From positions 1-34,899 of the forward strand of contig JBFGZE010000020.1 of assembly GCA_041586955.1 (NCBI GenBank): a stretch of DNA of 34,899 nt. The letters run 5' to 3'. Under the pieces are notes generated by a model. That model saw only the letters and a list, made by a program, of their open reading frames with translations. It was not told the DNA's origin and searched no databases. The translations under genes and the position numbers were made by a program. How positions within the stretch are numbered: position 1 is the first letter of the stretch; each line of letters begins with the position of its first letter. Below, in pieces: positions 27,804 through 34,010 of this stretch. The stretch comes from Bacteriovoracaceae bacterium. GTDB taxonomy: Bacteria > Bdellovibrionota > Bacteriovoracia > Bacteriovoracales > Bacteriovoracaceae.

Positions 27804-28778
27804 ATGCCCGTCATGAAAGCAACGGCGACAAAAATAGAACCCCCAAAATATCAAGAGATCTTTGACCAGGCCTTGGCCCATTATTTGGCATTGGCCTGTC
27901 CCAAAGATTTCGCCTATGAAATGTATAGCTACGCTGTGCTCCCGGCCGGCAAATTATTCCGCCCCAGTTTAGCTCTGGCCATGGCCTTAGATAAGGGCCT
28001 TGATGCAACCACCATTCATCGTGACCATCCCTTAATAAAGGCCTGCTGCGCCCTTGAAATACACCACGCCTATACCTTGGTCCATGACGATCTTCCCTGC
28101 ATGGATGATGACGATATCCGCCGTGGTCGGCCCAGTCACCATAAAAAATTCAATGAATGGATGGCGGTACTAAGTGGTGATGGCCTATTGAATTTAAGCT
28201 ATGGCCTTCTTGCCGACTTACCGCCACAGGCATTGCCTCATTATTTAAAATACTTCTCTCATTGCCTTGGCCCGAAAGGCCTTATTCACGGCCAAGTCCT
28301 CGATCTAAAAGGGGCCAATCAATCCCATTCGATGGCGCATTGGGCGCGTATTCACCAATTAAAAACATCACGCTTAATTCAGGTATCCTTAATCTTAGGA
28401 CAAATTTTTGCGACGACAAGGCCCAGCTTCAATGAGCTCAAACTTACTCATCGCTTTGGCGCCAATTTGGGTTTAGTTTTTCAATTTGTGGATGACCTTA
28501 TTGAATTGGCCGAAGACCAGGTGCAAGGCCATGAATTAGAGATTAACCCCTGGATCATCTCACCCGATCGAACTCTCGCCTTCACACTTTCTAAACTTGA
28601 AAAGGTGATTGAAGAGTTAGGCCAAAGCCAATATTTAAAGGGAGTCATCGATCAATACTTCATTAAAATGAAATTAATTATCGATTCTGGTGAGGAAAGA
28701 ATTCAATCTTTTATGCCTGACCAAAGGAAATTAGAGATCAAGCCATTGGTGGCGCTCTTGGATCTCAGTGGTCAATGA
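27804..28778 (+). CDS. ispA: Short-chain polyprenyl diphosphate synthase (IspA-like)
   Basis: GKLFRP, FARM DDLPCMDDDDIRRG, GQVLD, KT, and second motif FQFVDDLIE. Tyr at -5 before the FARM suggests a short-chain product. Confidence 0.88.
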   Translation: MPVMKATATKIEPPKYQEIFDQALAHYLALACPKDFAYEMYSYAVLPAGKLFRPSLALAMALDKGLDATTIHRDHPLIKACCALEIHHAYTLVHDDLPCMDDDDIRRGRPSHHKKFNEWMAVLSGDGLLNLSYGLLADLPPQALPHYLKYFSHCLGPKGLIHGQVLDLKGANQSHSMAHWARIHQLKTSRLIQVSLILGQIFATTRPSFNELKLTHRFGANLGLVFQFVDDLIELAEDQVQGHELEINPWIISPDRTLAFTLSKLEKVIEELGQSQYLKGVIDQYFIKMKLIIDSGEERIQSFMPDQRKLEIKPLVALLDLSGQ

Positions 28779-29174
28779 CATTAAGGTTTGAAGGTCCTTT
28801 TTGGCCATCTCTAACTTATTGAGATCATCACGACTTAGACCTTGCCTAATGATTTGCGGTAAGGAGTTAATTTCCTCTTCGTCATCATCATTATCCAAGT
28901 GGCCATAATTTTCATTGGCCGATAATAAAATTTTTATATCGGCCTTGGCCTTTTCAATATTAAGTTTATCTTCAAATAATAATTTTTTAATGACAGCAAC
29001 GGCCTCGATATCTTTATGTTCATAAAGCTTTTGGCCACTCGAAGAAGTGATAGGGTTAACCTCATCAAATTCTGCTTCCCAAAACCGTAGTACATACGGT
29101 TTTACTCCCGTTAAAGAACAAACTTCATTTAACTTAAAAAGAGATTTATTGGGGATTTCAATAAGACTGGCCAT
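28731..29174 (-). CDS. MerR-family HTH protein of the ihfA-associated type
   Basis: IPNKSLFKLNEVCSLTGVKPYVLRFWEAEF, typical of the MerR gene that follows ihfA. Confidence 0.9.
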   Translation of the reverse strand: MASLIEIPNKSLFKLNEVCSLTGVKPYVLRFWEAEFDEVNPITSSSGQKLYEHKDIEAVAVIKKLLFEDKLNIEKAKADIKILLSANENYGHLDNDDDEEEINSLPQIIRQGLSRDDLNKLEMAKKDLQTLMSLTTEIQERHQWLDL

Positions 29175-29185
29175 TCTATCTACCT

Positions 29186-29593
29186 TTACATATCAGAATC
29201 TAAATCTGATTCCTCTGAATTATTCATAAAAGAACTAAGAGCGCGTGAAGTTCCGTCCCGAGAAGGAATCGATGTATCTTCTTTCCCTTTATCATCTAAA
29301 CGGTGAGAATAGCGAACAGTAACATCTTCTTTTAAAACCTGAGACGGCTTGAAGGTTAAGACGCGACGAGCAGATATTTCCATAGCGTCACCTGTTTGAG
29401 GGTTTCTCCCCATTCGGGTGGCCTTGTCTCTGATAGAAAAATTTCCGAAACCAGAAATCTTTACTTTTTCGCCTCTAGCTAAAGTGTCTTTAATGACTTT
29501 GAAGACCATATCAACGAGGTCGGCTGCTTCTTTTTTAGAAAAACCAGCTTCCTTGTAGACTCTTTCAACAATATCGGCCTTTGTTAAACTCAT
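29186..29593 (-). CDS. ihfA: Integration host factor alpha subunit with C-terminal extension
   Basis: MSLTKADIVE...VKISGFGNF...GRNPQTG...ISARRVLTFKPSQVLK; GGAGG SD. Confidence 0.93.
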   Translation of the reverse strand: MSLTKADIVERVYKEAGFSKKEAADLVDMVFKVIKDTLARGEKVKISGFGNFSIRDKATRMGRNPQTGDAMEISARRVLTFKPSQVLKEDVTVRYSHRLDDKGKEDTSIPSRDGTSRALSSFMNNSEESDLDSDM

Positions 29594-29689: not shown

Positions 29690-31126
29690 CTAAGATTTTA
29701 TGCGTCTTTTCTTAGTTTTTTTGCCAGGTTTTTGAATCTTTTTAAATAATTGATCTGTTTCCCTGTCTTTTTGCTTGAGCCAATCAGTCATATACTCTTT
29801 AACTTCCATCAACTCTTCAATCAATTTCTTAGACACTAACTTTTGAGAGCCAGCAACCTTTTTATATTCTTTTAATTTAATCGAATCTTCTTTGACCATC
29901 AGTTTACGTTTCGCTACTTCCTCTTTAGTCATGCGATAAATAGGCATATCAGCGAGATAATCACTGAAGAAATATTTTTTCTTAAGCAAGTACTCTACAT
30001 ACGACTTACGATTCTTTTGCTTAGTAGCGGCTTCATATTCTTTGTTTTTAATGAATTTGATAATTTCATTATTTTGGCGAATTTTAGTCTCAAATTCCTT
30101 GCAGAGGAGCTCATAGCGGCGAAGGACAACCTGTAATCGCTGCTCAGTAAAAATCTCAATAATTTGCTCTGGCCGATCAAAAATCCTCACACCCCGCTCT
30201 GAAATAAGGGTGTAATTAGGAGATAATGAAGCACTCGTCCCCATAACCTTTTCAACTTCAGCAAGAGTTGGGGTTTGGCCACGCTTAAAAATTAATTCAA
30301 TCCGGACATTATTATTAACTGTCGAGTCAATATAATCCTTTAGAAAATCAGCTTCTATATGCTTATTAAGAAAACGATAGGTCTTGGTTCCATCATAGCC
30401 TTTGGGCAATTCAATAATATAGATCTTGCCGTCTTTTTCCTCAAACTTCATCGGAAAAAGATAACGGCCACGATCCGCTTCAATCTTGGCCGTATAATTA
30501 TGAACATAAGGTTTTAACTTTTTGGCCTTTTTTGTTTTAACGTATTCGATCATTGAATCACAGATGTCTTTATGATGAAAACTTGGAATCATAGAAGAAA
30601 AACCTGTTCCAATTCCTTCCGCACCATTGAGTAACATCAACGGGAGCTTTGGCAATAAGGCCGCAGGCTCAACAACTGTTTCATCATAATTGGGGATCAT
30701 CTCAACTTGGTTCATATCATCAAAAAGAATAAAATTAGTCATCTTCGATAATTTACATTCAATGTATCGACCAGCTGCAGGAGATGTTTCCATCCGTTCG
30801 CCAAAATACCCTTTCTTTTCGATAAGTGGGTAATTATTAGCAAAGGTATAATCCTGGGCCATATTAACAATGGCAGTCTCAATAGAAGCAGGACCGTGGG
30901 GGTGTAAGGTTAAAACTAAACCTGTTGCTGCGGAAACTTTAACTAACCCTTTACTTTGATTTTTATAGAGGGTGAAAAGAATTCGCCTTTGCCCGGGTTT
31001 CAGGCCATCTTGCAAATACGGAATCGCCCGATCCATAAGAGTATAAATTTGATAAATACGGTACTCCTCTCGCACAATTTGATCGAGAGGGACAGTCTCA
31101 AGAGAATGAAGATAAGTCTCTTGCAT
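29690..31126 (-). CDS. Atypical type IIA topoisomerase A subunit (breakage-reunion domain only, no CTD pinwheel)
   Basis: DRAIPYLQDGLKPGQRRIL, HPHG, MAQ, catalytic AAGRY, LLNGAEGIGTG; only 478 aa. Confidence 0.92.
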   Translation of the reverse strand: MQETYLHSLETVPLDQIVREEYRIYQIYTLMDRAIPYLQDGLKPGQRRILFTLYKNQSKGLVKVSAATGLVLTLHPHGPASIETAIVNMAQDYTFANNYPLIEKKGYFGERMETSPAAGRYIECKLSKMTNFILFDDMNQVEMIPNYDETVVEPAALLPKLPLMLLNGAEGIGTGFSSMIPSFHHKDICDSMIEYVKTKKAKKLKPYVHNYTAKIEADRGRYLFPMKFEEKDGKIYIIELPKGYDGTKTYRFLNKHIEADFLKDYIDSTVNNNVRIELIFKRGQTPTLAEVEKVMGTSASLSPNYTLISERGVRIFDRPEQIIEIFTEQRLQVVLRRYELLCKEFETKIRQNNEIIKFIKNKEYEAATKQKNRKSYVEYLLKKKYFFSDYLADMPIYRMTKEEVAKRKLMVKEDSIKLKEYKKVAGSQKLVSKKLIEELMEVKEYMTDWLKQKDRETDQLFKKIQKPGKKTKKRRIKS

Positions 31127-31148
31127 GATCCATTCCTTTTACTAAAAT

Positions 31149-33296
31149 TTATTTTTTCTTAGTCGTTTTCTTTTTCTTTACTGTTTTTTTAGCTACTTTT
31201 TTCTTAGTGGCCTTTTTCGCTGTCTTTTTGGCCACCTTTTTCGTTACTTTCTTAGTCGCTTTTTTAGCTACTTTTTTAGCTACTTTTTTAGCCACTTTTT
31301 TAGTCACTTTTCGACTAACAGAATCTCCACTAGCAGAGAAGACCATATCTTCACTCGTATCCATTAAAAGATCTTTACGAGGAGAAGAATCTTTTCCAAA
31401 ACAGACTCCCAGCATCTCTTTGGCAGAAGTTAAGTCATCGATATGGATTTCAGTATACTTTTCCTTATCCAATACATATTTCCAGGCCTGCGGGGACATT
31501 TCTCCCAGCCCTTTATTGCGATGAATGGCCCTAATCTTTGGATTTTTCTTTTTTAATTCTTCTAATTGGTTCGGTGTTTCGACATAAATCGTATTTTTAT
31601 CTGTCACCACCTCAAAAAGAGGGGCCTTGGCCAATTCGATAACCCCATTTTCAAATAATTCCGGCCAAAAGGTAAAAAAGAAATTCGTTAAAAGAGTATT
31701 AATATGGCCACCATCCACATCAGAATCCGCGAGGAAAACAATTTTCGAATAGCGCATTTTTTCAATCACCGCTGGTTGGCCAATGGTTAATCCCACAGAG
31801 GCCATAATATCGGAGAATTCTTGATTATTGAGAATATCTTTAATTGTCGATTGAGCGACATTCATCGGCTTTCCTCGCAGGGCAATTCCCCCTTGAGTTA
31901 ATTTATTCCGCGCCGAACGCAGCCCCCCAATGGCCGAGTCCCCTTCACAAATAAAAAGCATACATTTGCTACGGTCTCTTCTTTCGTTAGCGTCTAATAA
32001 TTTTTCAACCCGTTGCTTTTTTTGCTTTCGTCCACGTTTAGAGGCATCTTTTAATTCTTGGAATTTATGCCGCGCTTTACCACGTTCCACCACTAATTCT
32101 AGATAGTCTTTATTTTTACGCATAAATTTATCGATAAATTTTGCCATAAATGATTCGAGACTTTTTTCGAGATGGGTATCACGCACTAATTTTCTTTTAG
32201 TTTGTGATTCAAACCGTGGGTTGGGCATGGTAATTCCCATAATAAAGGTCAAACCAGTCAGAACATCATTGTCAACAACAGTAATTTTCTCTTTTTTGGC
32301 AGTCCTTTCTAATTTCTCTTTAACCGCATTGATAAAAAGCCGTCGGATCCGGTCTTGATGAAAGCCACCGTCAAACGTGGGTGTGGAATTCACAAAACTA
32401 ATAAAGCGCTCACGCTCTTCAGACTTGCGGTCAATAACCAGGGAGGTGTGAACATCTATTTTCCCTTTAACTTTCTTGCCTTTTATATTTTTGCTTTCAA
32501 AAACATAGGAGTGCTCACCTAATAATTGTGCCCCTTCCTCGTTAATCTGAGTGGCCAATTCGTAAAGACCTTTTTTAAAGACAAACTTTTCCTTATTAAA
32601 AAAGAAAATGAGACCAGGATTATTATAGGCCAAATCGATGATTCTTTTACGAAGAAGATCAGGATCAATAACCGGATCTTTATAAACTTCTTTCGATAAC
32701 ACCACCTCAACTCGCACACCAGAATGACCGGTAAAGGTTTTGGGCCTAGTTTGCTTAACCTTCAATGCCCCATCGATAAAAGTAATGGTTTGCTCTTTTT
32801 TAGAATTATAGTGGCGGACACGAACTTTAAAACTATCTGCGGTCAAACAGGTGGCCGCTGCTCCAAGACCATTTTGGCCTAGAGTCCGGTGTAAGAAACC
32901 TTTTTCGTCCACTTCCTCATCTTTAAATTTAGAGCCTGTACGGAATTCACTATAGACCTGCTTCACCTTACTCAAGGGAAAACCGATACCATTGTCTTCA
33001 ACCGCCACAGTTCGCCCGTCATCTGATAAAGTGGTGTGAATTTCCGTGACGTGGCCACGATAATATTCATCAATACAATTATCGAGAATTTCCTCGATGG
33101 CCTTACTTTTCGCTTGGTGGAACTTCACCTGCTGAAAGGAAACGCCTTTATCAGTATAAAGATATGTGTCTAAATCTTCGATATCATTAGAACCAAAAAC
33201 CAAAGTGATGCGATTCCGGCAATGCCAGCGCTGATCCTTACTCTCAATAAGAGCATCTTTAGCTTTACCTTTCCTTTTTATCGATCCAACTGCCAT
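31149..33296 (-). CDS. Atypical type IIA topoisomerase B subunit (GHKL and TOPRIM) with Lys-rich tail
   Basis: EILDNCIDE, DNGIG, GQNGLGA, FESQTK, EGDSA, LRGK, DSDVDGGHI, KGLGEM. ATG 33296 with GGGAAG SD. Confidence 0.93.
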   Translation of the reverse strand: MAVGSIKRKGKAKDALIESKDQRWHCRNRITLVFGSNDIEDLDTYLYTDKGVSFQQVKFHQAKSKAIEEILDNCIDEYYRGHVTEIHTTLSDDGRTVAVEDNGIGFPLSKVKQVYSEFRTGSKFKDEEVDEKGFLHRTLGQNGLGAAATCLTADSFKVRVRHYNSKKEQTITFIDGALKVKQTRPKTFTGHSGVRVEVVLSKEVYKDPVIDPDLLRKRIIDLAYNNPGLIFFFNKEKFVFKKGLYELATQINEEGAQLLGEHSYVFESKNIKGKKVKGKIDVHTSLVIDRKSEERERFISFVNSTPTFDGGFHQDRIRRLFINAVKEKLERTAKKEKITVVDNDVLTGLTFIMGITMPNPRFESQTKRKLVRDTHLEKSLESFMAKFIDKFMRKNKDYLELVVERGKARHKFQELKDASKRGRKQKKQRVEKLLDANERRDRSKCMLFICEGDSAIGGLRSARNKLTQGGIALRGKPMNVAQSTIKDILNNQEFSDIMASVGLTIGQPAVIEKMRYSKIVFLADSDVDGGHINTLLTNFFFTFWPELFENGVIELAKAPLFEVVTDKNTIYVETPNQLEELKKKNPKIRAIHRNKGLGEMSPQAWKYVLDKEKYTEIHIDDLTSAKEMLGVCFGKDSSPRKDLLMDTSEDMVFSASGDSVSRKVTKKVAKKVAKKVAKKATKKVTKKVAKKTAKKATKKKVAKKTVKKKKTTKKK
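31152..31313 (-). repeat. Degenerate 12-bp tandem repeat encoding KK(V/A/T)(A/T) units
   Basis: Plus-strand units such as TTTTTTAGCTAC x2, TTTTTTAGCCAC and TTTTTTAGTCAC; encodes 54 aa containing 29 Lys. Confidence 0.9.
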
Positions 33297-33395
33297 AGAA
33301 ACTTCCCAGTCAAAGTTTGATTTGTTATTTTTGAAGGGACCATATAAATGTCTAAAATCAAGATTAAAGGGCCATTGGATTGGTGAAAAGGCGCA

Positions 33396-34010
33396 ATGCA
33401 AAAAATACAATACTTTCTATTTATCAGTTTTTTCCCCTATTTACACCTCTCGGCAGGGGTTATTACCCCCTCCACCAAGGCCTTTGAGAGATTTGGTCCC
33501 GAGGCGAATCAGGCCATCTTGAGTGGTGAAATTTTTATTAATACACAAGTAAAAGACTTCGCTCAAAGCAAAGGACCTAAACAACAAACCCTTAATTTTC
33601 GCATTGGCGGCCTACATCCTCGCAATTGCCAGTCCGCGTTACGAAAGTTATCACAATACGAGAATTTCTCCAGATGGATTGGGTTTATTGATAAAAGTAC
33701 TTATGATGAAAAAAAGCAAAGGCCGACCTTCCATCTCAAAAGTAACCTCCTACCCTTTAATATGACCCTTGATTTTCATTTGCCCCGCATCCGGCAACCT
33801 GGTGTTTATGAGTTTCAATTTGACCGGGGGTTTTTATCAGGACTCAAGGGAAAAATCTATGTTCACTCTCATAAAAAGCGCTGCTTTTTTGAAAGTGAGG
33901 CCTATTGGCGTGGTCCCCACTCCAGTATCCCGAGCTCTGTTTTTGAATTCTTCTCTGATGCACTAGGTCGTCTCGCAATGGAAAACCTCTTCCGTATTTC
34001 ACGCTCTTAA
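33396..34010 (+). CDS. Exported hypothetical protein, possibly SRPBCC-like fold
   Basis: 204-aa ORF with a signal-peptide-like N-terminus. LSQYENFSRWIGFI, GFLSGLKG and a C-terminal IP helix loosely resemble SRPBCC; fold call is weak. Confidence 0.65.
   Translation: MQKIQYFLFISFFPYLHLSAGVITPSTKAFERFGPEANQAILSGEIFINTQVKDFAQSKGPKQQTLNFRIGGLHPRNCQSALRKLSQYENFSRWIGFIDKSTYDEKKQRPTFHLKSNLLPFNMTLDFHLPRIRQPGVYEFQFDRGFLSGLKGKIYVHSHKKRCFFESEAYWRGPHSSIPSSVFEFFSDALGRLAMENLFRISRS

Follow-up and report, generated by a model that had tools for sequence, protein, structure and literature searches.

The window analyzed here is a 34,899-nt stretch of DNA from Bacteriovoracaceae bacterium (assembly GCA_041586955.1, contig JBFGZE010000020.1), which carries two adjacent genes encoding the B and A subunits of a type IIA DNA topoisomerase. 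In a preliminary description based on the sequence alone, this pair had been taken to be non-canonical, i.e., neither a gyrase nor a standard topoisomerase IV (topo IV). The features of the topoisomerase locus are as follows.

31149..33296, minus strand: B subunit gene, 715 aa (GHKL ATPase, transducer with the QTK loop, TOPRIM, tail domain), identified from the open reading frame (ORF), Pfam, the aligned motifs, and the N-termini of the orthologs.

31149..31331, minus strand: Lys-rich C-terminal tail of B (approximately residues 656-715, KKVAKK-type repeats) and stop codon; the homology envelope ends at residue 655.

29690..31126, minus strand: A subunit gene, 478 aa (winged-helix domain (WHD) with the catalytic Tyr121, tower, coiled-coil C-gate; no C-terminal domain (CTD)), identified from the ORF, PF00521, and the AlphaFold2 (AF2) model.

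30764..30766, minus strand: codon of the catalytic tyrosine (Y121, in AAGRYIE), which lies in an invariant R-Y column corresponding, in the alignments, to the active-site RY in the GyrA/ParC/gp52 family.

29690..29743, minus strand: short basic C-terminal tail of A (residues 462-478, KKIQKPGKKTKKRRIKS) and stop codon, identified from the sequence; the predicted local distance difference test score (pLDDT) of residues 469-478 is <50.

The open frame of B spans positions 31149-33410, reaching an upstream TTG at 33410. The conserved N-terminus MAxxxVKR(K/R)GKxK..IESKDQRWHCRNR of 15 orthologs agrees with a start at the ATG in position 33296, so that the end originally assigned to the element is the true start of B (715 aa). 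The B and A genes are separated by a 22-nt gap, with AAGGA preceding the start of A, and the G+C content of the locus is ordinary. A K/R-rich end was found in all 19 of the Bacteriovoracaceae A orthologs examined. The end of B is variable: among 20 sequences (19 ortholog loci and the window), 10 have a Lys-rich tail, five have a short basic end, and five (loci L175, L176, L178, L180, and L307) have none.

The amino acid sequences of the two subunits indicate that the type IIA catalytic apparatus is complete, with all its catalytic motifs intact. The Pfam content of B consists of HATPase_c, DNA_gyraseB, and Toprim, all above the cut-off, plus a GyrB_C match below the threshold, while that of A consists of PF00521 alone (1.6e-84), without any PF03989 beta-pinwheel repeats. 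The aligned motifs of B include E..N..D of the GHKL domain, GQNGLGA, ESQTKRKL (QTK loop), EGDSAI, DSDVDG (the DxDxD of TOPRIM), and KGLGEM, and the R120-Y121 pair in the WHD of A is invariant across the alignments. All the features generally expected of type IIA topoisomerases are therefore present (GHKL, QTK, and TOPRIM on B; the WHD tyrosine, tower, and C-gate on A). The strings GQNGLGA, DNGIGFP, and HCRNRITLVFGS, which the preliminary description had singled out as divergent, were confirmed in the translation, where they align opposite the GGLHGVG, D(D/N)GRG(I/M)P, and RKRPGMYIG of canonical GyrB/ParE. Its account of A as a 478-aa protein with a short basic tail was also borne out: the C-terminal beta-pinwheel with GyrA box that characterizes DNA gyrase is absent.

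The model of A obtained with AlphaFold2 from an alignment of 35 rows (pLDDT 90.5; predicted template modeling score, pTM, 0.85) shows a WHD, a tower, and a long coiled-coil C-gate, with residues 469-478 predicted to be disordered. When this model was compared with type IIA breakage-reunion cores using Foldseek, template modeling (TM) scores of 0.74-0.86 were obtained. The best sequence matches of A in the PDB are Top2 cores (6ca8, 3e-37). The counterpart of the quinolone-resistance region of GyrA (residues 75-91 of window A) reads HPHGPASIETAIV, as compared with HPHGDKSIQDALS in Leptospira. Based on an alignment by eye to the E. coli numbering, window A presumably has Ala where GyrA has Ser83, and Thr in place of Asp87. 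Since the quinolone-anchoring positions differ, the drug response is not assumable from that of topo IV.

None of the NCBIfam cut-offs for gyrA, parC, gyrB, or parE was reached, the best score being 171 versus 654 bits in the case of A and 302 versus 740 bits in that of B. With the gyrase models, A scored 138 bits (TIGR01063 gyrA, cut-off 877) and B 292 bits (TIGR01059 gyrB, cut-off 882). With the parC models (TIGR01062, TIGR01061, NF007208, NF007209, and NF009397), A scored 105-150 bits, the cut-offs being 598-813, and with the parE models (TIGR01055 and TIGR01058), B scored 208-228 bits, the cut-offs being 723-900.

The assembly to which the window belongs (3.46 Mb, 194 contigs, 88% complete) contains two PF00521 and two PF00204 genes, corresponding to a canonical gyrB-gyrA pair on contig C80 and the window pair. 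The check proposed at the outset, i.e., whether the genome has gyrAB but lacks parCE, thus came out as expected. PF03989 matches occur five times in the whole assembly, always inside the canonical 824-aa GyrA frame on C80, which means that there is no separately encoded or frameshifted CTD for window A: the possibility that such a CTD might restore a normal A subunit was ruled out by this assembly-wide search. A topo VI-A gene was also searched for in this genome and was not found; as it is likewise absent from all the family genomes sampled (see below), topo VI was rejected as a hidden second enzyme.

The distribution of the pair was studied in a phylum sample of 200 genomes, 35 of which belong to the window's family (Bacteriovoracaceae/Halobacteriovoraceae) and 165 to 27 other families. 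An ortholog was identified in all 35 family genomes (61-74% identity, E<1e-190), each of which carries exactly two PF00521-type genes, this A and GyrA; no orthologs were found in the 165 genomes of the 27 other families. In a class-wide sample searched at E<=1e-100, orthologs are present in 112 of the 119 family genomes and in 50 of the 54 genera; none was detected in the only other family of the class, which is represented by one 0.9-Mb genome. The 120 best close homologs listed (70-79% identity, 467-494 aa, on contigs of up to 3.9 Mb) come from Bacteriovoracaceae, Halobacteriovoraceae, and "Bdellovibrionales", and bear the generic label "DNA gyrase subunit A". The strains carrying an ortholog include Halobacteriovorax marinus and Bacteriovorax stolpii. 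The pair is chromosomal, vertically kept, and under strong purifying conservation.

Outside the family, topo VI-A genes were identified in 138 of the 201 phylum genomes searched; all 138 are among the 165 non-family genomes, and none of the 35 family genomes has one. It was noted in a published study that Bdellovibrio bacteriovorus, which has gyrase and topo VI, is devoid of topo IV (PMC11302465). Both topo VI-A and the present enzyme are missing in family f2, which carries ParC-like genes of approximately 770 aa and ParE-like genes of 820-850 aa. Depending on the family, the second type II enzyme in this one phylum is therefore of three different kinds: this enzyme, topo VI, or a ParCE-like pair. 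The earlier suggestion that the window pair stands in place of ParCE fits this gene content, since the window's own genome and all 35 family genomes have gyrase and the pair, without any ParC-type gene or topo VI.

Some other observations were made on these genome samples. In families f4, f6, f11, and f15, gyrase appears to be the sole type II topoisomerase with the queries used. One genome of family f14 carries a 1089-aa fused B-A topoisomerase II (L172, G117:C4:96500-103000) beside gyrase and topo VI-A; in both the A and B trees, this protein groups with the 1000-1900-aa fused set resembling those of nucleocytoplasmic large DNA viruses (NCLDV) and eukaryotes. Lastly, a Bacteriovoracaceae-type A (L276, L278, and L302; 68-74% identity) is present in three metagenome-assembled genomes (MAGs) bearing the labels Sulfitobacter sp., Epsilonproteobacteria bacterium, and Flavobacteriaceae bacterium; the contigs in question look mislabelled or mis-binned.

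Relatives outside the family were searched for by performing an exhaustive HMMER search with A against 1.84 billion representatives. The first match beyond the family clusters is a 462-aa protein from Leptospira santarosai (34% identity, E 3e-67). It is followed by many 430-460-aa proteins, several of which are encoded on 130-200 kb contigs, and by fused Top2 proteins of 1000-1900 aa (e.g., sea-urchin TOP2A); proteins of 780-805 aa account for only three of the best 150 matches. The Leptospira short A is conserved across the Leptospiraceae (50 loci, 73-97% identity) and is followed, with a 4-nt overlap, by the gene encoding a 711-aa B, which shares 26% identity with window B (E 3e-60) and has the lid GQNGVG. 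In the two Leptospira genomes checked, GyrA and the short A are the only A-type genes, and gyrase is accompanied by no type IIA enzyme other than the pair, which currently bears the annotation "DNA gyrase/topoisomerase IV, A subunit". The Leptospiraceae/Spirochaetota pair is thus the nearest relative outside the family (33-34% identity between the A subunits); it shares the signatures of the window pair and belongs to the same clade in both trees. The two pairs differ in several respects, however: the gene order is A then B in Leptospira and B then A in the window; the Leptospira A ends right after the C-gate helices, without the basic tail present in window A; and the Leptospira B has no Lys-rich tail, reads QDK instead of QTK in the transducer loop, and has a GHKL region approximately 50 aa longer. 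Other Spirochaetota MAGs and a group around sequence P0145 also belong to this clade.

Two indels in A split the groups cleanly. The first is an 8-residue segment, GPDFPT(G/A)G, located between the WHD and the tower in the canonical A rows. It is modified in the divergent short P0162 and in a Mycolicibacterium protein, partial in the Verrucomicrobiota ParC (ParC_Verruco), and missing in the family, the Leptospiraceae, P0145, and all the viral or fused rows. At this site, Leptospira reads KPWYKDFKGEV, which resembles the Top2-type PWYKGFKGxI. The second is a two-residue insertion with an NN motif, which the family and the Leptospiraceae have in common with many Top2-type rows: this region reads AQDYTFANNYPL in the family, AQDFTFANNIPL in the Leptospiraceae, AQDFVGSNNINLL in Top2-type proteins, and AQPFSLRYPL in canonical proteins. 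In the case of B, the sequences grouping with the window share with the viral and eukaryotic proteins a segment of approximately 13 residues after the N-terminal strap, which is missing in canonical GyrB/ParE, as well as the QNG lid, EGDSAI, and FxxWPEL, while keeping the canonical-like KGLGEM. The states that are canonical in topo IV are not found in the window pair, since the GPDFPT segment is missing and the lid reads GQNGLGA instead of GGLHGVG. An insertion common to the phage and eukaryotic enzymes has been taken by Forterre and Gadelle to mean that T4 topo II was not derived from the bacterial enzymes (PMC2647321). If the same logic is applied to the indels described above, the present lineage would not be a derived ParCE.

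The preliminary description had regarded GxNGxG lids and A subunits without a CTD as typical of T4-like phages and eukaryotes. This holds in the case of the lid, which is indeed shared with the T4-like and fused Top2-type proteins. The absence of a CTD does not by itself point to phages or eukaryotes, since the topo IV of Chlamydia is recorded as lacking one (PMC8216471).

Phylogenetic trees were built with the PF00521-homologous core of 192 A sequences, of which three over-long cuts were dropped, leaving 189 rows. These included the family, the Leptospiraceae, the HMMER representatives, T4 gp52, the RsoM2USA protein, 29 GyrA rows (26 from diverse phyla plus those of the window's genome, Leptospira, and E. 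coli), and ParC rows from E. coli, Neptuniibacter, Bradyrhizobium, a Bacillota species, a Verrucomicrobiota MAG, and family f2. A more careful tree was computed on 77 rows and 453 columns with IQ-TREE, using the LG+C20+F+G4 model with posterior mean site frequencies (PMSF); supports are given as ultrafast bootstrap (UFBoot)/Shimodaira-Hasegawa-like approximate likelihood ratio test (SH-aLRT) values. The Bacteriovoracaceae (100/100) and the Leptospiraceae (100/100) are joined together with P0145 (98/89). Window A lies outside the canonical GyrA+ParC clade (100/99), which includes the divergent P0162 and P0209 and the Verrucomicrobiota ParC, and also outside the group in which all the phage-size and fused proteins fall on one side (100/98); T4 gp52 and the RsoM2USA protein are located deep in the viral side, far from the window's clade. 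The same three blocks were obtained with FastTree on the 189 rows. Adding the Bacteroidota-type ParC or the second A of three Mycolicibacterium species left the three clades unchanged, and the additions fell into the canonical clade. A quick B tree (67 rows, 637 columns, SH-aLRT supports) gave a canonical GyrB/ParE clade (99), a Bacteriovoracaceae+Leptospiraceae clade (74), and a T4-like plus fused clade (74). The Bacteriovoracaceae and Leptospiraceae/Spirochaetota enzymes thus form a third clade, distinct from both canonical GyrAB/ParCE and the viral/eukaryotic Top2, as had been supposed when the pair was first described as a separate chromosomal lineage.

Two side observations concern the sampling in these trees. 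The large subunits of topoisomerase II from the phages Ph_WRP3, Ph_Molly4, and Ph_PaBG (L194, L193, and L195) group with canonical GyrB/ParE and not with the T4-like proteins, so that the type IIA B subunits of phages are of at least two kinds. In the class of the "Cytophagia" MAG G205 (genomes G208-G231), a Bacteroidota-type ParC (NF009397/NF007209 above the cut-off) was found in only one of 25 genomes, the others having a GyrA-like match only.

The trees are unrooted and show a three-way junction. As the root is not placed, which two of the three clades are sisters depends on its position, and the direction of any transfer between viruses and cells is not readable. Alternative placements of the third clade were compared using approximately unbiased (AU) tests (47 rows, quick trees). 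Forcing it together with the crown ParCs cost 169 log-likelihood units (lnL) and was rejected (p-AU 1e-59), so that nesting in ordinary ParC, the outcome that the preliminary description had named as fatal to its proposal, is excluded. Forcing it together with the Verrucomicrobiota/Bacteroidota-type ParCs cost 31.6 lnL, which is borderline (p-AU 0.047), and forcing it together with the four nearest phage-size proteins, which were picked after the tree had been obtained, cost 36.8 lnL and was not rejected (p-AU 0.096). Judging from these sequence-based tests, the third clade may be attached at more than one point along the axis leading from the canonical to the viral enzymes.

The borderline result bears on the idea that the pair might be a fast-evolving topo IV without a CTD, of the kind present in Chlamydia (PMC8216471) and some Actinomycetota, its separateness being a long-branch artefact. 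A chromosomal pair standing beside a normal gyrase in the usual place of topo IV, the canonical-like KGLGEM of B, and the ladder that the divergent ParC-like rows form toward the viral side would all be in line with this idea. We consider it rather improbable, however, since the canonical clade excludes window A (100/99), the grouping with the crown ParCs is rejected, and the indels are distributed in the opposite way: P0162, P0209, the Bacteroidota-type ParCs, and the Mycolicibacterium second A keep a GPDxPT-type segment (ParC_Verruco only in part) without the NN insertion, while the third clade has the insertion and no segment. With the GyrA/ParC NCBIfam models, window A (171 bits) also scores like the phage-size proteins (167 and 158 bits), whereas the divergent ParC-like P0162 reaches 391 bits.

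A second alternative, which takes up the viral origin that the preliminary description had offered as a possibility, is that the pair might be a phage topoisomerase II of the T4 gp39/gp52 type, acquired either by ancient domestication in the ancestor of the family or by recent capture on a prophage. Several features recall phages: the two-subunit layout without a CTD, the similar size (442 aa in gp52, 430-460 aa in the nearest non-bacterial relatives on 130-200 kb contigs), the indels and motifs shared with the T4 type, the 28-32% identity with phage proteins over approximately 90% of the length of A, and the placement with the four nearest phage-size proteins, a group chosen after the tree was seen, at p-AU 0.096. 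The neighbours of A in the ESM Atlas past its own cluster are mostly viral, which can serve only as a lead. Recent capture is already contradicted by the distribution, as the gene is near-universal in the family, has conserved neighbours and an ordinary G+C content, and finds its nearest non-family relative in a chromosomal Leptospira gene; in addition, no close copy was present among the 120 relatives retrieved from IMG/VR by a two-motif scan, the best full-length identities being 25-30%. As regards ancient capture, the viral and fused sequences all remain together in the best trees (100/98), and the direction of transfer is not readable from an unrooted tree. Taken as a whole, an origin of this kind seems very unlikely to us.

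The third alternative is a specialized enzyme of the TopoNM kind (Mycobacterium smegmatis; relaxation and positive supercoiling) instead of a housekeeping decatenase. Three Mycolicibacterium species have a second A subunit, which we assume to be of the TopoM type; these proteins are 715-738 aa long (about 720 aa, i.e., approximately 230 residues beyond the core), have the canonical insertion in the form of a GPDW segment, and fall into the canonical clade, and the window enzyme differs from them in all these respects. It is also universal in its family, where it is the only candidate decatenase. The likeness lies in the fact that TopoNM too is a second, atypical two-subunit bacterial type IIA enzyme beside gyrase (PMC8084294) and has been reported to lie between Bacteria and T4 phages (PMC2647321), where the third clade is located. 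This explanation is scarcely credible in our view. In Mycolicibacterium psychrotolerans (L441/L442, G233:C1:1425326-1426632), the second A is split into adjacent open frames of 291 and 490 aa, and it is whole in three related species.

The reading which we prefer, and which we consider likely, is that the pair encodes a complete, active-looking A2B2 type IIA enzyme belonging to the third clade and serving as a chromosome decatenase beside gyrase. The A2B2 assembly is the rule in the type IIA family. By homology, B would close an ATP-operated clamp on the transported DNA segment, the gate segment would be cut by TOPRIM together with Tyr121 of A, and the transported segment would leave via the coiled-coil C-gate. 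As there is no DNA-wrapping beta-pinwheel, negative supercoiling is not expected of the enzyme; its predicted activities are the relaxation of supercoils and the unlinking or unknotting of DNA, as with T4 topo II, eukaryotic Top2, and topo IV without a CTD. The disordered basic tails, conserved in A and variable in B, probably provide an unspecific affinity for DNA that replaces the CTD. Most likely, this enzyme would be the cell's ATP-dependent relaxase/decatenase, relieving replication forks and unlinking chromosomes, which is the role played by topo VI or ParCE elsewhere in the phylum.

Several points weigh against this reading. The decatenase role was deduced from domain logic and gene content. 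The window's genome is only 88% complete, and seven of the 119 family genomes, mostly fragmented MAGs but including one that is 98% complete, gave no match at E<=1e-100. In addition, 14 small genomes (families f4, f6, f11, and f15; 1.2-2.2 Mb) have one GyrA-type gene, no topo VI-A, and no second A, so that a second type II enzyme is not obligatory in this phylum. In the phylogeny, the B tree supports the third clade only modestly (74), the constraint with the Verrucomicrobiota/Bacteroidota-type ParCs is borderline, the long-branch ladder of divergent ParC-like rows is a pattern that long-branch attraction can produce, and Chlamydia ParC/ParE and M. smegmatis TopoNM are outside the tree sampling. 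The structure search based on the model does not separate phage from bacterial cores: the top Foldseek match is T6 gp52 (8ylu_A, TMt 0.86), but the GyrA, ParC, and Top2 cores are nearly equal (0.74-0.83), and this search therefore carries no lineage signal. The PHROG profiles were likewise dropped as a sign of phage affinity: window B scored 472 bits on phrog_543 and window A 356 bits on phrog_551, but the controls scored higher (own GyrA 538, own GyrB 550, E. coli ParE 497), which deprives these matches of any discriminating power.

Downstream of the topoisomerase genes lies one further feature of the locus.

29186..29593, minus strand: gene encoding an HU/IHF-like DNA-binding protein, 135 aa (PF00216 at 3e-31).

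The order HU-like, MerR-like, and polyprenyl synthase gene downstream of A is present in the window and in 9 of the 19 ortholog loci. The HU/IHF-like gene is a conserved neighbour, and its functional tie to the topoisomerase is only a candidate one. The HU/IHF-like protein has an acidic, Ser-rich C-terminal extension of approximately 45 aa past the PF00216 domain. It is followed by a MerR-family gene (28731-29174, minus strand), and the two genes have been kept together downstream of the topoisomerase in many genera.

No description of this lineage was found in the full-text literature on Bdellovibrio/Bacteriovorax or Leptospira topoisomerases, subscription-only papers being outside the scope of the search, nor is it mentioned in the accessible portions of PMC9752973, PMC11302465, PMC8084294, PMC8216471, PMC2647321, PMC11461880, or PMC12642874. 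A 2021 review restricts its list of bacterial type IIA enzymes to gyrase, topo IV, and the isolated TopoNM (PMC8084294), and another account gives four or five type IIA subfamilies in total (PMC2647321). The bacterial set used in a 2022 study on the viral origin of eukaryotic Top2 consists only of GyrA/GyrB homologs and E. coli ParC/ParE (PMC9752973). A vertically inherited bacterial enzyme with Top2/T4-type states changes the taxon sampling relevant to the question of Top2 origins, and the third clade, to which the second type II enzyme of Leptospira also belongs, provides a cellular reference point between the bacterial and the viral/eukaryotic enzymes. It is possible, although we regard it as doubtful, that this clade might be a cellular lineage that has survived at the point where the bacterial and the viral/eukaryotic type IIA enzymes meet: either the bacterial stock from which the Top2 of tailed phages and then of NCLDV and eukaryotes arose, or else an ancient phage enzyme which was domesticated in two phyla unrelated to each other, where it replaced topo IV or topo VI. 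If either version of this junction lineage were true, it would supply a missing link and a possible root for the tree underlying the viral-origin argument about eukaryotic Top2. The phylum itself presents a natural case of non-orthologous replacement, in which the putative decatenase role is taken by topo VI, a ParCE-like pair, or this enzyme; and a compact model enzyme without a CTD could be studied in culturable predators such as Halobacteriovorax marinus and Bacteriovorax stolpii.

In comparison with the known systems, the window pair resembles T4/T6 topo II (gp39[+gp60]/gp52), of which structures have been obtained by cryo-electron microscopy (8ylu and 8yo3; PMC11461880), in having separate B-like and A-like subunits with Top2-type motifs and no CTD (442 versus 478 aa in A), a GxNGxG lid, EGDSAI, FxxWPEL, the post-strap segment, and no GPDFPT segment, and it would be expected likewise to relax and decatenate DNA without supercoiling it. 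It differs from T4/T6 topo II in that the identity amounts to only 26-32%, the phages have KGLG(S/T) where window B has KGLGEM, and the window pair is chromosomal, with conserved synteny, vertically inherited, equipped with basic tails, and placed outside the phage clade (100/98), although grouping with the phage-size proteins is not rejected (p-AU 0.096). With eukaryotic/NCLDV Top2, it shares GxNGxG, AQ(D/N)F..NN, FWPEL, and, in the Leptospira member, PWYKGFKG; but in Top2 the B and A moieties are fused into one polypeptide that continues into a long, non-homologous C-terminal region, whereas the window enzyme is encoded by two genes 22 nt apart, and the fused sequences lie apart from it in both trees. 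With bacterial topo IV, it has in common its position as second type IIA enzyme beside gyrase, the lack of a GyrA box, and probably the same job, and the topo IV of Chlamydia, which has no CTD (PMC8216471), shows that a bacterial decatenase can work without a pinwheel. It differs from topo IV in that its scores stay below all the parC/parE cut-offs, it branches outside the canonical clade, and it has Top2-type insertions and no GPDFPT segment.

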